DNA from: Gammaproteobacteria bacterium
GTDB taxonomy: Bacteria > Pseudomonadota > Gammaproteobacteria > Eutrophobiales > Eutrophobiaceae
Direction of reading: 5' to 3'
Assembly (NCBI GenBank): GCA_965222155.1
Contig: CBDCTH010000012.1
Location: forward strand, 640,001 to 704,000
DNA length: 64,000 nt
This document shows, piece by piece, positions 32,635-40,716 of this stretch (its first letter is position 1; each line of letters starts with the position of its first letter). The notes beneath the pieces are model-generated. The model saw only the letters and a program-made list of their open reading frames with translations, searched no databases and was not told where the DNA came from. The translations under genes were made by a program, and so were the position numbers.

Positions 32635-33276
32635 ATGGCTAATCACTTTTCAGACCTGCGCCGGGAATATCGTCACGTGGCATTGCATGAACAGGATGCA
32701 ATGGATGACCCGGTAGAGCAGTTTAAAGACTGGTTCGGGCAGGCTGTCGAGTTCGGAGTACCGCTACCCAATGCCATGGCGCTGGCGACGGCAACAAAGG
32801 ACGGCAAGCCCACAGCCCGGTATGTGTTGTTAAAGGAGATAAGTGAGCGGGGATTTTCCTTTTATACCCATTCCGTCAGCGTTAAAGGCAAGCAGATTGC
32901 GGAAAACCCGGACGTTGCCCTGGTATTTTACTGGTCACAAATGCACCGGCAGGTACGGGTGGAAGGCAAGGCCTGCCTGCTGACTAACGCGGAGGCAGAT
33001 GCCTACTTCAATACCCGGCCCTATGACAGCCGTCTTGCCGTATGGGTCGCGGATCAAAGTAGACCGGTTGATAGTCGGGAATTTCTTGAAACCAAGATGA
33101 CCGAGATTGCAGAACGGTACCCGGGCGATTTCGTGCCCAGGCCTGATACCTGGGTCGGGTATACGGTTACGCCTGAGTGTATGGAATTCTGGCAGGGCAG
33201 GGAAAGCCGATTACATGACCGGCTGCTCTATACCAGGGAGGACGACGGCTGGAAACTGGTCAGGCTGGCACCCTGA
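32635..33276 (+). CDS. pdxH: Pyridoxine/pyridoxamine 5'-phosphate oxidase
   Basis: DLRREY, NAMALAT, RQVRVEG, EFWQGRESRLHDR. Confidence 0.95.
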   Translation: MANHFSDLRREYRHVALHEQDAMDDPVEQFKDWFGQAVEFGVPLPNAMALATATKDGKPTARYVLLKEISERGFSFYTHSVSVKGKQIAENPDVALVFYWSQMHRQVRVEGKACLLTNAEADAYFNTRPYDSRLAVWVADQSRPVDSREFLETKMTEIAERYPGDFVPRPDTWVGYTVTPECMEFWQGRESRLHDRLLYTREDDGWKLVRLAP

Positions 33277-33597: not shown

Positions 33598-34356
33598 TTA
33601 TGACTCTGTTGGGGTCATCGTCGTCAATGTTTTTTTCTGTTTTCGCATGGATTCACCCTTGAGTTGTATTTTGTAAGCATTATGCACCAGGCGGTCAAGG
33701 ATGGCATCGGCGAGGGTGGGGTCGCCGATGCTGTGATGCCATTTTTCGGCCGGTAATTGACTGGTAGCGAGGGTGGAGCGTGCGCCGTGGCGGTCTTCCA
33801 GGATTTCCAGCAGGTCACGGCGCTGCTCTGCGTTCAATTTGACCAGGCCCCAGTCATCGAGGATGAGGGCCTGGGTTTTTGCCAGGGTGGTGAGGAGCTT
33901 GGGATAGCGTCCATCGCCCTTGGCGATGGACAGGTCCTGGAGGAGTCTGGGCAGGCGCAGGTAGAGGGCGGTGTAGCCGTGCCGGCAGGCGTTGTGTGCC
34001 AGGGCACAGGCGAGCCAGGTTTTGCCGACGCCGGTGGGGCCGGTGATGAGGATATTGAGGTGTTCGCGGACCCACTGGCAGGTGGCCAGTGATTGCATCA
34101 GGGATTTATCCAGTCCGCGCGGGTGGCGATAGTCGATATCCTCCAGGGTGGCATTGTGTTTGAGGCGGGCGCATCGCAGCCGGTTGGACAGGCGTCGGTT
34201 GTCCCGTTCGGTTATCTCCCGGTCGACGAGCAGGCCGAGGCGTTCCTCGAAGCTGAGGGTATCGATATCGGGCACGGACATCTGCTCGGTGAGGGCGGCA
34301 GCCATACCGGTGCATTTCAAGGTCTGGAGTTTGTCCAGGGTGGGATGTATCAACAT
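33598..34356 (-). CDS. istB: IS21 helper ATPase IstB
   Basis: GPTGVGKT, LILDDWG, DAILDRLVHNA, GESMRK. Confidence 0.95.
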   Translation of the reverse strand: MLIHPTLDKLQTLKCTGMAAALTEQMSVPDIDTLSFEERLGLLVDREITERDNRRLSNRLRCARLKHNATLEDIDYRHPRGLDKSLMQSLATCQWVREHLNILITGPTGVGKTWLACALAHNACRHGYTALYLRLPRLLQDLSIAKGDGRYPKLLTTLAKTQALILDDWGLVKLNAEQRRDLLEILEDRHGARSTLATSQLPAEKWHHSIGDPTLADAILDRLVHNAYKIQLKGESMRKQKKTLTTMTPTES

Positions 34357-34375
34357 AGCAGTCTCCTGTCGTGGG

Positions 34376-35917
34376 TCAGTGGTAGTAGGATGGGCCACGG
34401 ATATTGTCGTGGTCATCAGGTAAGGCCGCCTCGGTCTGCTCGGCGAGGGGTTGCCGGTCCAGGCCGTGGCGGAGGATGGATTCGATACTTTTGTAACTGT
34501 GGCTGCCCAGGGTGAGGGCGCGTTGGCAGGCGGCCTCCAGCCGGTCGTCGCCGTAGGTTTTAGCCAGGCGCAGGATCCCTAAGCAACTGCGGTAGGCCTG
34601 CTGGGGGTGCTTGCGGGCAGACAGGACACGGAGGATAAGGGTTTCTGTGGCCGGCCCGACCTGCGCGGCCCAGCGGCCCAGGCGTTGCGGGGACCACTCG
34701 CCGGCCTGGCGGTGCGCCTCGGGCATGTGGGCCGGGACGGTGGTATGACGTGCCTTATGATACGAGCGTCGATGGCTGGCGATGCGCTGGCCGCGATGAA
34801 AGCATTCAATGGTGTTGGCGGTGATGCGCACGTCCAGTTGTTTTTTGATGAGCGCGTGGGGCACGGAGTAGTAATGGCCATGGACCTCGATGTGATAGTC
34901 GATATGGACCCGCGCCTGCTTCCACTCGGCGTATTCGTACGCTTCGACGGGCAGGGGGCGCAGGGCCGGTTTATCCAGTTGCTCAAACAGCGCGCGCCGG
35001 GTGCCCGGCAGTTTCTTGAAGGGCCGGTTGTTGAGCGTCTCCAGCAACGCCCGGATGGCGCGGTTCAACTCTGCCAGGGAGAAGCACTGACGCTGGCGCA
35101 GGGCGGCGAGGATCCAGCGCTCTACCACCTGTACCGCGACCTCGGCTTTCGCTTTGTCACGGGGACGACGCACCCGTGCCGGGACAATGGCGACCCCGTA
35201 ATGGGTGGCCAGGTCCTGGTAGGTGGGGTTGATGTCCGGCTCATAGCGATGCGCACGGCTCACCCCGGCGCGTAAATTATCCGGCACCACCACCTCCGGC
35301 ACACCGCCCAGGTAGGTAAAACAGCGCACGTGGGCGCCGATCCAATCTTCCAGGCCCTGGCTCCAGGTGGCCTCGGCATAGGTGTAGTTCGACGCGCCCA
35401 GCGCTGCCACAAACACCTCTGCCTCACGGACTTCCCCGGTTGCCGGGTTGATGACCTGAGCACGCATACCGGCATAATCCACGAACAGCTTCTCACCGGC
35501 CCGGTGCTCCTGGCGCATGACCAGATCCAGCTTGCCACGCCACGTCCGATAATGCTGGCAGAACCAGGTGTACTGATAGCCTTGCGGGTGAGTCTGGCGA
35601 TACTCATGCCATAACAACTGCAAGGTGACGCCCGGGCGTTTCAACTCCCGATGAATGTGTGACCAATCGGGCACGCCGCGGGCCGCGGCGGGTACAGCTG
35701 GGGCGGGCGGAAACAGCAGACGCTCCAGCGCCCCGTCATCCAGCGCCGCAGGCAGCGGCCAACCCAGCCCGGCCGCCTCGGCCCGGCGCAGGTACTCATC
35801 CACCGCCGGACGGGAAATGCCACAACTCCTGGCTGTCTGGCGTTTGCTCAGGCCCTGGCTCCAGCACAGGCGTAATACGTCTTTTATCTTTCTCATGGAC
35901 AACCTCTTTGCAGGCAT
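34376..35917 (-). CDS. istA: IS21 transposase IstA
   Basis: N-terminal HTH, FVDYAG, VPDNL, PRDKAKAE DDE motifs, YSVP. Confidence 0.95.
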   Translation of the reverse strand: MPAKRLSMRKIKDVLRLCWSQGLSKRQTARSCGISRPAVDEYLRRAEAAGLGWPLPAALDDGALERLLFPPAPAVPAAARGVPDWSHIHRELKRPGVTLQLLWHEYRQTHPQGYQYTWFCQHYRTWRGKLDLVMRQEHRAGEKLFVDYAGMRAQVINPATGEVREAEVFVAALGASNYTYAEATWSQGLEDWIGAHVRCFTYLGGVPEVVVPDNLRAGVSRAHRYEPDINPTYQDLATHYGVAIVPARVRRPRDKAKAEVAVQVVERWILAALRQRQCFSLAELNRAIRALLETLNNRPFKKLPGTRRALFEQLDKPALRPLPVEAYEYAEWKQARVHIDYHIEVHGHYYSVPHALIKKQLDVRITANTIECFHRGQRIASHRRSYHKARHTTVPAHMPEAHRQAGEWSPQRLGRWAAQVGPATETLILRVLSARKHPQQAYRSCLGILRLAKTYGDDRLEAACQRALTLGSHSYKSIESILRHGLDRQPLAEQTEAALPDDHDNIRGPSYYH

Positions 35918-36598: not shown

Positions 36599-36924
36599 TG
36601 GTGGGCCCGGTAGGACTTGAACCTACGACCAATGGATTCACTTTACCCTTTTATTTCTAAAAGGAGCGGACTATCTCACTACCCTCAACCGAATGCTAGG
36701 GTACGGGACGCTCAAGCCTGTTATTAAGAACACTCCAGTTCCCAGGTAGTCTCTGCACCTTCCGAGGGTGTACCCCCGGCTTGGCTCAGGGTTGCCAGTC
36801 CTTCCGCCTTGGCAGGCAGGTGGATTAAGGTTTCCCTGAATTCATCCCGTTCATTTCATATTTTTCAATATGAACGCACCATTTTCGATGAGTCCACTGC
36901 TCTAACCAGCTGAGCTACAGGCCC
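36599..36924 (-). tRNA. tRNA-Ile2 (CAT anticodon), intron-containing; exons 36924-36888 and 36638-36599
   Basis: Joined exons give the 77-nt GGGCCTGTAGCTCAGCTGGTTAGAGCAGTGGACTCAT^AATCCATTGGTCGTAGGTTCAAGTCCTACCGGGCCCACCA; position downstream of rpoD matches E. coli ileX. Confidence 0.9.
36639..36887 (-). ncRNA. Group I intron (IC3-like, 249 nt, no ORF)
   Basis: Exon ends in U and intron ends in G; P AATTCAGGGAAA, Q AACCCTGAGCC, R GTGCAGAGACTA, S GAGATAGTCC; GAAA-capped P2 and P9 hairpins. Confidence 0.9.
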
Positions 36925-36965
36925 AAATAATAATAATAAGAATCACATATAATACGACAGCTTTC

Positions 36966-36989
36966 AAAAAGCAACCCTGGCAGGTTGCT
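36966..36989 (-). terminator. Rho-independent terminator after rpoD
   Basis: AGCAACC/GGTTGCT stem followed by a T-run on the minus strand. Confidence 0.65.
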
Positions 36990-37007
36990 CTGCTCTAATC
37001 CGTTATG

Positions 37008-38849
<1,842 letters not shown>

Positions 38850-38958: not shown

Positions 38959-40716
38959 CTATTTTTTATTCCCACTTTCTTTTGAGTAGCGCCTGCGCAG
39001 TTGCGATTTAGCCTCTTCAGTCAACTCGCTGGGGCTGGATTGGGTGATCTTTTCAATGGATTGTCTGGTTTTAATCAGGTTCAGCTTTTCCACCATATCA
39101 ATGAATTCAAGTTCCGGGTCAAAGTGTTCATCCCTCGGCAATCCGAAACCTGATGCAAGTTCATTCAGTCGTTGCCCGTAGCGCGAACCCCGCCAGTGCT
39201 CGATAATGCCCGCGCAGGTTATTTCGGGATTTGAGTGGACCAATGTAACAAGCTCCGTCAAAAACTCGACGCCCGGAACAGTAATGCCGGACAGTTCAGC
39301 GGGGTCTTCCACAAGCATGGCCAGTTCGGGCTTGTTCAAAATATACGATACGATAGCGCTGATGTCGGCTGTTCTTTCCCGTTTCTGCCGGGACCGGGGA
39401 AGGCCGGGACGACGCTGCGTGGCGCCGGAGCGGTGTTCCTGTAACAGCTTGTGGACTCCTTCGGAATCGATTTGCGCGATACCGGCAACTTCCTGCGTTA
39501 ACAGTACGCGCAGTCCGCTGTCGGGCATTTTGGCCAGGTAAGGCACTATCAGGTCCAGAAAATTTGCCCTGCCTTCACGGGTGGTGGTGCCGGTCCTGGA
39601 TTTTATAGAATCCAGCAGGAAATCGGAGAGAGGAACGATATTTTTATCGGATCGGAATTGTTCCGCACCATATTCCCTGATAAAACTGTCGGGATCATCC
39701 CCTTCGGGCATGAAGTTGAACAACGCCTGTCTTCCCTCACGGAGTTGGGGAACCGTAATTTCCAAAGCCCGCCATGCCGCCTTTTTGCCTGCTTCATCAC
39801 CATCGAAACAAAATATGAGCTGGTCGGCAACCCGGTACAGTTTTTCCAGGTGGTTTTCCGTCGCAGCAGTGCCCATGGTGGCGACTGCGTTGACAACACC
39901 GTTTTGGGCCAGCGCGATCACATCCATATAACCTTCAACAATATAAAGCCTCTCAGGCTGTTTGTTCTTCTGGCGGGCGTGGTAGAGGCCATACAGCTCG
40001 CGACCTTTGTGGAACAGGGGTGTTTCCGGCGTATTCATGTATTTCGGGATATCCTCACCCAGCACCCGGCCACCGAAACCGATGATGCGTCCGCGTTGGT
40101 CGCGTATTGGAAACATGATGCGGTCGCGGAAACGATCGTAAAATCCTTCAGTATCGCGGCGTACTATCATTCCCGCTTCGACCAGGCGGGTTTTAGCTGC
40201 CGCTGACTTGCCCAAAGCGTTTCCCAGGTTTTTCCAGCCCGGCGGGGCGTAACCGATCTCATAATCCTTGATGACCGCGCCGCTGATGCCTCGTTTTTTC
40301 AGGTAATCGATCGCCCTGCCGTCGTTCTCGTGCAGTTGGCACTGGTAGAATTTTGCGGCTTGTTCCAGCAGCTCATATAATTCGTCATGCTGGTTTGAAG
40401 CCGGCTGATAACCCGCTTCGCGCGGGATTTCCAGTCCATACCGTCCGGCCAGGTCTTCTAAGGCCTCAACGAAACCCAGGCCATTGTATTCCATAATAAA
40501 GGTAATTACCGTGCCGCCGGCGCCACAGCCAAAGCAGTGGTAGAACTGCTTGTTCTGACTCACCGTAAAGGAAGGCGTTTTCTCCTCATGAAACGGACAC
40601 AGGGCCTGGTGATCCTTACCGGCTTTGCGCAAGGGGACGCAGCTGTCAATGACCTCGACGATATCGGCCCGCGCCAGCAAGTCATCAATGAAACCTTGAG
40701 GTATTCTACCCGCCAT
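38959..40716 (-). CDS. dnaG: DNA primase
   Basis: CPFH...CFGC zinc finger, DRFRDRIMFPI, EGYMDVI, FDGDEAG TOPRIM. Confidence 0.97.
   Translation of the reverse strand: MAGRIPQGFIDDLLARADIVEVIDSCVPLRKAGKDHQALCPFHEEKTPSFTVSQNKQFYHCFGCGAGGTVITFIMEYNGLGFVEALEDLAGRYGLEIPREAGYQPASNQHDELYELLEQAAKFYQCQLHENDGRAIDYLKKRGISGAVIKDYEIGYAPPGWKNLGNALGKSAAAKTRLVEAGMIVRRDTEGFYDRFRDRIMFPIRDQRGRIIGFGGRVLGEDIPKYMNTPETPLFHKGRELYGLYHARQKNKQPERLYIVEGYMDVIALAQNGVVNAVATMGTAATENHLEKLYRVADQLIFCFDGDEAGKKAAWRALEITVPQLREGRQALFNFMPEGDDPDSFIREYGAEQFRSDKNIVPLSDFLLDSIKSRTGTTTREGRANFLDLIVPYLAKMPDSGLRVLLTQEVAGIAQIDSEGVHKLLQEHRSGATQRRPGLPRSRQKRERTADISAIVSYILNKPELAMLVEDPAELSGITVPGVEFLTELVTLVHSNPEITCAGIIEHWRGSRYGQRLNELASGFGLPRDEHFDPELEFIDMVEKLNLIKTRQSIEKITQSSPSELTEEAKSQLRRRYSKESGNKK

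Follow-up and report, generated by a model that had tools for sequence, protein, structure and literature searches.

A sole detectable tRNA-Ile2(CAU) gene, very probably split by an IC3-type group I intron, downstream of dnaG-rpoD in a gammaproteobacterium

Four classical types of tRNA intron are distinguished in bacteria, Leu.3Ug, Arg.5Ug, fMet.2Ug and Ile2.5Ug, all of them belonging to subgroup IC3, and 5292 split tRNA genes have been counted in about 80,000 genomes (Williams 2020 preprint). The intron of Azoarcus BH72 is, according to the excerpted text of its source (PMC13168695), 205 nt long, lies in the anticodon loop, leaves a 3' exon of 40 nt and self-splices in vitro. Here we report on an intron of this kind in a stretch of 64,000 nucleotides from a bacterium of the family Eutrophobiaceae (assembly GCA_965222155.1, contig CBDCTH010000012.1, positions 640,001 to 704,000; the whole stretch is called the window below). 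The interrupted gene is very probably the sole detectable tRNA-Ile2(CAU) gene of the genome, of the ileX type, located downstream of dnaG-rpoD and split by a 249-nt IC3-type group I intron. On its sequence, the intron is a member of Ile2.5Ug, the long-known IC3 class of Azoarcus. The cyanobacterial and plastid tRNA-Leu(UAA) introns (Leu.3Ug, likewise IC3) share with it the core pattern, a similar size and the lack of an open reading frame, but they sit in another tRNA, at another loop position (after U34), and use another guide sequence.

The split tRNA(CAU) gene runs from 36924 to 36599 on the minus strand. A first-pass annotation, made by a model from the sequence alone, had given these limits to the nucleotide; the strand was missing there and is minus. 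The 5' exon (36888-36924, minus, 37 nt) contributes the 5' strand of the acceptor stem, the D arm, the 5' strand of the anticodon stem, the loop nucleotides C-U and the anticodon. The anticodon (CAT at 36890-36888) ends the exon, and its final U stands at -1 of the 5' splice site. The intron follows (36639-36887, minus, 249 nt); it is IC3-like, contains no open reading frame and ends with a G at 36639, the omega-G. The 3' exon (36599-36638, minus, 40 nt) begins with A37 A38 and continues through the 3' strand of the anticodon stem, the variable loop, the T arm and the 3' strand of the acceptor stem to an encoded CCA. Joined by a script, the exons fold into a cloverleaf of 77 nt, in which the acceptor stem has 7 bp, the anticodon stem 5 bp and the loop the sequence C-U-C-A-U-A-A; ARAGORN reads them as tRNA(cat) and labels the product tRNA-Met. 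The description of two tRNA halves which give a clean 77-nt cloverleaf once the 249 nt after the CAT are removed was thus correct.

The intron is inserted between anticodon nucleotide 36 and nucleotide 37, that is, past the fifth nucleotide of the anticodon loop (C-U-C-A-U / A-A). Moving the junction by one base in either direction alters the product. The intron ends in a base other than that at the end of the first exon, and it begins with a base other than that at the start of the second exon, so that only a single cut gives the product of the intronless alleles. Six such alleles from loci of the same genus were read. Their loop is C-T-C-A-T-A-A, their 5' segment ends at the same base as that of the window, and they differ from the predicted product at 1-3 positions, which lie in the D and T loops. 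These alleles fix the junction, and the terminal G which had been noticed before (G286 of the pre-tRNA, window 36639) is invariant across 25 aligned sequences.

With Rfam RF00028, the check which the first-pass annotation had named for its group I assignment, we obtained a match at 36899-36647 on the minus strand that scores 85.1 bits (gathering score 50, E 3e-20) and covers model positions 1-253 of 253; the assignment therefore stands. No reading frame longer than 36 aa overlaps the intron, in agreement with the claim that it has no ORF. The intron alone folds with a minimum free energy of -85.6 kcal/mol (z = -3.38). From 14 related pre-tRNAs RNAalifold recovered P1, P2, P3, P4, P5, P6/P6a, P8 and P9 without guidance, with compensatory change in 35 of 92 pairs. 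We further aligned 25 sequences with MAFFT, 10 of which belong to the window's class, the other 15 being named public records. The structure was fixed by hand from the window's sequence, P7 was added as a pseudoknot, and pairing was then counted on the 25 sequences. In this hand-set structure 93.6% of the cells are paired, compared with 35.6-46.1% when the partners are slid by 1-3 columns. Double changes, that is, changes on both sides of a pair, are found in 42 of 65 pairs, and none of 500 shuffles reaches any of the five measures. The helices P3, P4, P5, P6a, P8 and P9 are paired in 82.6-100% of the cells, with double changes present.

The individual elements, all on the minus strand, are as follows. 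The internal guide sequence (3' strand of P1, 36875-36880) pairs its G-U-G with the exon C-A-U and forms the splice-site wobble U37.G46. This U.G pair is found in 25 of 25 sequences, and the P1 proposed earlier, exon CAU with intron GUG and U.G at the splice site, can be retained. P1 also changes in step with the anticodon of its host. In a copy from another genome (G038) the exon ends in CUU instead of CAU and the guide reads GAG instead of GUG, so that an A-U pair turns into U-A. P2 (36855-36874) is a hairpin of 8 bp with a GAAA loop, and both-side changes occur in 8 of 8 pairs among the 25 sequences. The 5' strand of P3, P4, P5 with a variable extension, P6 and P6a, which include the P and Q elements, occupy 36755-36849 in the Rfam alignment and are paired in 97-100% of the cells. 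The 5' strand of P7 (R element, G-A-G-A-C-U-A, 36747-36753) pairs with 36668-36673, the invariant 3' strand (S element, U-A-G-U-C-C), and the six pairs are the same in 25 of 25 sequences. With 100% of its cells paired and no variation, P7 fits the structure but gives no covariation support. We presume from the family that P7 is the guanosine-binding helix. The 3' strand of P3 (36704-36710) is paired in 100% of the cells with double changes in 3 of 7 pairs, the P8 hairpin (36680-36703) has double changes in 6 of 8 pairs, and the P9 hairpin (36647-36664, 7 bp) has double changes in 6 of 7 pairs and a GAAA loop which is invariant in the 25 sequences. Both P2 and P9 are thus capped by GAAA, as had been noted. 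The intron has no domain of the size of P5abc, and its presumed GAAA receptor motifs are non-canonical. Only the G038 copy has, in P5, the 11-nt motif which we take to be the canonical GAAA receptor; in the window a variant stands in its place.

The likeness to the Azoarcus intron is extensive. Both introns have the same type of host tRNA, the site past the fifth loop nucleotide, U at -1, the omega-G, P1 formed by exon CAU and guide GUG, and the R and S core elements; both cap P2 and P9 with GAAA and lack an ORF. The 3' exon has 40 nt in both cases, and 249 nt in the window compare with 205 nt in Azoarcus, both figures for the latter as in the excerpt of PMC13168695; the expectation of a larger relative was therefore justified. 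The additional length is mainly due to a hairpin of about 30 nt in J7/3, to which a longer P5 extension is added.

This extra hairpin lies at 36717-36746 (minus) between the 5' strand of P7 and P3', which therefore do not follow each other directly in the window's intron, and it contains a conserved 3' internal loop (C-U-U-A-A-U-A-A-C). Relative to the RF00028 consensus it is an insertion. It is found in 23 of the 25 aligned introns, that of the window included, and its helices show double changes in 7 of 9 pairs of the alignment. In the remaining two, the betaproteobacterial introns L030 (Polynucleobacter, 223 nt) and L143 (212 nt), the columns are gapped. We take these two introns to resemble the Azoarcus intron in sequence. 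In the intron tree they are split from the 23 hairpin-bearing introns by a branch with 100/100 support. The hairpin marks a structural variant within Ile2.5Ug; membership in the class is unaffected, because the class is defined by the host tRNA and the insertion site. A literature search for IC3 introns with a P7.1 found, among the papers listed, no description of such an element, which is not to say that it is unpublished.

A conserved hairpin with an invariant internal loop, extra relative to the Azoarcus-like introns L030 and L143, could serve as a protein-binding or stabilising module. Excision would then need a host protein, for instance a chaperone or a tRNA-binding factor, and the non-canonical GAAA receptors would also suit such a requirement. 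However, the core is complete, neither the intron nor the neighbouring DNA encodes a partner protein, and the class relative from Azoarcus self-splices in vitro according to the excerpt of PMC13168695. We therefore consider a need for a protein unlikely.

The CAU anticodon alone cannot separate a methionine tRNA from tRNA-Ile2, and ARAGORN labels the spliced product tRNA-Met. The host could accordingly be an elongator-like tRNA-Met, in which case AUA decoding would not be at stake. Several observations nevertheless speak for tRNA-Ile2. The genome has three CAU tRNAs in all, two called by ARAGORN and the split gene. One of the two others resembles an initiator in its 1:72 mismatch and its GGG/CCC anticodon stem; the second has the acceptor stem G-G-C-U-A-U-G, as in elongator Met. 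An initiator-type and an elongator-type CAU tRNA are thus already at hand. At 63 of 77 positions the spliced product agrees with the E. coli tRNA-Ile that adjoins mug; the genome's own Met tRNAs reach 55 of 77 (elongator) and 54 of 81. Its acceptor stem, G-G-G-C-C-U-G paired with C-G-G-G-C-C-C, contains C4-G69 and C5-G68, which we take to be the TilS determinants in E. coli, and tilS itself is present in the genome (PF09179, 50.8 bits, in a 444-aa frame, C12:1951293-1951475).

The location points in the same direction. The tRNA gene lies 84 nt downstream of rpoD (37008-38849, minus; NF004208 824 bits, TIGR01391 471 bits), the gene directly upstream, and dnaG is found at 38959-40716, upstream of rpoD. 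The order rpoD and then tRNA is also seen in three named relatives (L056, L133 and L134). In E. coli the order is presumably rpoD-mug-ileX, and the position in the window agrees with this tRNA-Ile locus. Finally, no other tRNA of the genome would read AUA. A methionine identity of the host is in our view extremely improbable. Judged from its sequence and setting, the host is a tRNA-Ile2 of the lysidine type, in which C34 would be converted to lysidine and which would be charged with isoleucine. The tRNA-Ile(CAU) of the lysidine type which the annotation had put forward agrees with the locus downstream of rpoD, with the two other, Met-like CAU tRNAs and with the presence of tilS. On the other side of the tRNA gene, directly downstream, lies an IS21-family pair (istA 513 aa, istB 272 aa; 33598-35917, minus), and past this pair pdxH (32635-33276) is encoded on the plus strand.

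In its own genome the exons have a single match at E<=0.001, and the 46 tRNA calls made by ARAGORN in the genome include no UAU anticodon and no third CAU tRNA. A search of the assembly for an intronless tRNA-Ile2, which the first-pass annotation had asked for, found none. Likewise, the intron-bearing gene is the sole exon match in four relatives with complete single-contig genomes (G019, G002, G014 and G022). AUA codons were counted in a crude set of 2058 long ORFs. They amount to 12.1 per 1000 codons and 20.5% of the isoleucine codons and occur in 2017 of the 2058 ORFs; rpoD alone contains 11 of them. With the sole Ile2 gene split and AUA nearly everywhere, an inactive intron would be very hard to tolerate. 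The use of AUA together with the sole copy is the strongest argument, an indirect one, that the intron is likely to be active. As the assembly consists of 12 contigs with 7.28% contamination, a second, unassembled Ile2 copy is formally still conceivable. Since all AUA codons would depend on one intron-bearing gene, splicing could also act as a gate which ties AUA decoding to the supply of guanosine nucleotide or Mg2+ or to temperature. In such a scheme, which we hold to be quite improbable as a whole, the J7/3 hairpin that the Azoarcus-like introns lack would do the tuning.

We suggest that splicing would proceed in the following steps. The precursor would be transcribed from the minus strand, possibly together with rpoD, and the intron would fold into the P1-P9 core. 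P1, formed by the exon C-A-U and the guide G-U-G, would present the U.G wobble, and P7 would bind an exogenous guanosine for the attack on the 5' splice site. The terminal G at 36639 would then take the place of this guanosine, and U36, with its 3'-OH set free, could join A37. TilS would presumably lysidinylate C34 of the resulting 77-nt tRNA, which could then read AUA. A promoter scan between rpoD and the tRNA gene gave no convincing site. Inspection by eye shows a G+C-rich hairpin of 6 bp with a T-run behind it at 36960-37005 (minus), just past the stop codon of rpoD; an A+T-rich stretch then extends to the tRNA. A terminator scan did not list this hairpin.

Four metatranscriptome runs from four studies were available as assembled contigs, which may include DNA and carry no RNA ends or levels. 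Contigs containing the intron at 90-99% likeness are found in three of the studies (X1, X2 and X5). Record 18 of X5 holds the unspliced gene, and record 1 of X1 the intron with the downstream flank. Record 11 of X2 covers 36652-36886, lies wholly within the intron and ends 1 nt short of the 5' end of the intron; it is at most a weak hint of free intron RNA. Ligated exons of this organism were not found among the contigs of the four runs. One contig of 170 nt (X1 record 2) joins 36638 to 36888 and skips exactly 249 nt. We do not accept it as a spliced product, as both flanks are unlike the window; most likely it is the intronless gene of another organism.

The contigs thus offer no direct evidence of splicing, and one may ask whether the intron, genuine by descent, splices poorly or not at all. 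The gene would in that case be inactive or decaying, and a tRNA outside the assembly would have to read AUA. The state of the assembly given above would leave room for such a tRNA, and the IS21 element just downstream suggests a plastic region. A dead copy is, however, difficult to bring into line with the conservation of the intron. Across the 25 sequences the core elements do not vary and compensatory changes maintain the helices. The intron also persists in ten further species of the genus, with 85-98% identity. The sole exon match in the four complete single-contig relatives and the spread of AUA through nearly all long ORFs also speak against it. We regard a dead intron as very improbable and continue with a functional one as the preferred reading.

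The genus allows the history of the intron to be followed. Among 23 species genomes, that of the window (G000) included, the intron is found in 11 with 85-100% identity. In another 11 of the 23 (G001, G003, G004, G005, G007, G008, G010, G013, G018, G020 and G021) the same gene is uninterrupted, and the exons abut at the predicted junction. The exon search gave no match in G011, a genome of 83% completeness. Presence was mapped on an rpoD tree of 22 rows with a midpoint root, G006 being omitted on account of its rpoD, which gave a match in two pieces. At least two changes are required on this tree, and none of 500 label shuffles does as well. The rows that branch deepest, G017, G012, G009 and G002, carry the intron. 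The intron is absent from two well-supported clades and from G013, which lies inside an intron-bearing clade (100/100). The simplest reading is that the intron was mainly inherited with its locus and precisely lost at least twice, as it looks from a tree rooted at its midpoint only, on which gains are possible as well. In the genome left out (G006, contig C719, L173/L174) the rpoD upstream of the intron-bearing tRNA is seen in two pieces, residues 1-360 and 402-588, and may be broken or misassembled.

Beyond the genus, an even sample of the same class has an intron match (E<=1e-8) in 27 of 399 other genomes, with one genome unscored; with the window's own genome counted, the matches fall in 25 of 321 genera. 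A core-motif scan with one genome per species, which is a sample and not a census, gave at least 120 loci in many phyla. Among the 121 matches listed, at least 16 are CAU tRNAs cut after the anticodon, with junctions placed by the U(-1)/omega-G rule. We tallied 135 rows, namely these 121 matches and 14 loci of relatives, and at least 32 of them are Leu(UAA), the others being spread over Asn, Arg, Phe and further tRNAs. ARAGORN with introns enabled gave no intron-spanning tRNA call for 33 of the 135 rows and shifted anticodons for many; the junctions were re-derived by the U(-1)/omega-G rule, which left 18 rows ambiguous and 3 inconsistent.

The closest named full-length relatives among the matches listed come from a Woeseiaceae MAG (80%) and from Gammaproteobacteria MAGs (79% and 73%). 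Further named relatives among them are Lysobacter daejeonensis, a Rhodanobacteraceae MAG, a Ca. Azotimanducaceae MAG and a MAG of the K189A clade, and records from Burkholderiales have the same host and junction. The public tRNA(CAU) introns from Woeseiaceae (L056), Gammaproteobacteria (L133 and L134), Lysobacter daejeonensis (L116), Rhodanobacteraceae (L098) and Burkholderiaceae (L062) agree with the window in host, junction and hairpin-bearing architecture and differ from it only in the lengths of peripheral loops (introns of 234-294 nt) and in sequence. The gammaproteobacterial ones are 69-80% identical to the window's pre-tRNA, whereas the betaproteobacterial L062 matches at the exons only. 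RpoD of the window is 58-65% identical to RpoD of five named relatives, a range that does not place the genus. From the nearest intron relatives the organism can be taken to be a gammaproteobacterium, as the first-pass annotation had supposed. In the intron tree the window's genus groups with the Woeseiaceae intron (97/96 support); the tree as a whole, with 15 of its 22 inner branches open, is too poorly resolved to derive a copy in a tRNA(CUU) from an Ile2 copy.

This copy is found in G038, a genome from another family of the same class (L017:1501-1814, minus). The intron is homologous, has the same type of J7/3 hairpin and occupies the same loop position. Its host has the anticodon CUU and a body like that of tRNA-Lys, and the guide G-A-G offsets the change from A to U in the exon. 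G038 has an intronless Ile2-like gene in addition (C59:20653-20727). The case looks like retargeting between look-alike tRNAs by a single compensating change of the guide. The IC3-type core pattern is also present in contigs labelled Pacearchaeota and Methanosarcinaceae (L039, L074 and L104). At the two Pacearchaeota loci ARAGORN with introns enabled called a split tRNA (Asn), and at the Methanosarcinaceae locus it made no tRNA call. In a similar Pacearchaeota case mis-binning was suspected (Williams 2020 preprint).

The genome of the window has further group I matches. Its sole 23S rRNA gene in the assembly (G000:C12:1665448-1666545, minus; L002:1501-1844) contains one of 55.2 bits, above the gathering score, and a second, weaker one of 32.3 bits lies about 800 nt further 3'. 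Just upstream of this 23S gene, tandem units of about 128 nt with 87-96% identity occupy G000:C12:1669290-1670178 and surround an ARAGORN call of tRNA-Ile(GAU) at 1669704-1669780. An 89-nt call of 'tRNA-Ile(gat)' elsewhere (G000:C4:126382-126470) has two mismatches atop the acceptor stem and a long extra arm and is for these reasons probably not a genuine tRNA-Ile.

The split gene matters chiefly for annotation. Default ARAGORN does not report it, neither in the window nor in the whole genome, as the warning that standard tRNA calling may miss or split the gene had anticipated. With introns enabled, a run which had likewise been proposed as a check, ARAGORN finds the split gene, but junction and isotype are wrong: the intron is placed 2 nt too far 5' and the tRNA is called tRNA-Gln(CUG). 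We reject this placement, as it puts a C rather than a U before the splice site and its product is contradicted by the intronless alleles. Where default callers miss the gene and the intron-aware mode mislabels it, this genome and those of the ten other intron-bearing species of the genus would seem unable to read AUA.

In summary, the intron does not lead to new questions about group I introns in themselves. It is one more instance, and a well-documented one, in which an essential tRNA function would rest on a ribozyme, and the same locus with and without the intron in close relatives offers a natural comparison for the cost or benefit of carrying it.
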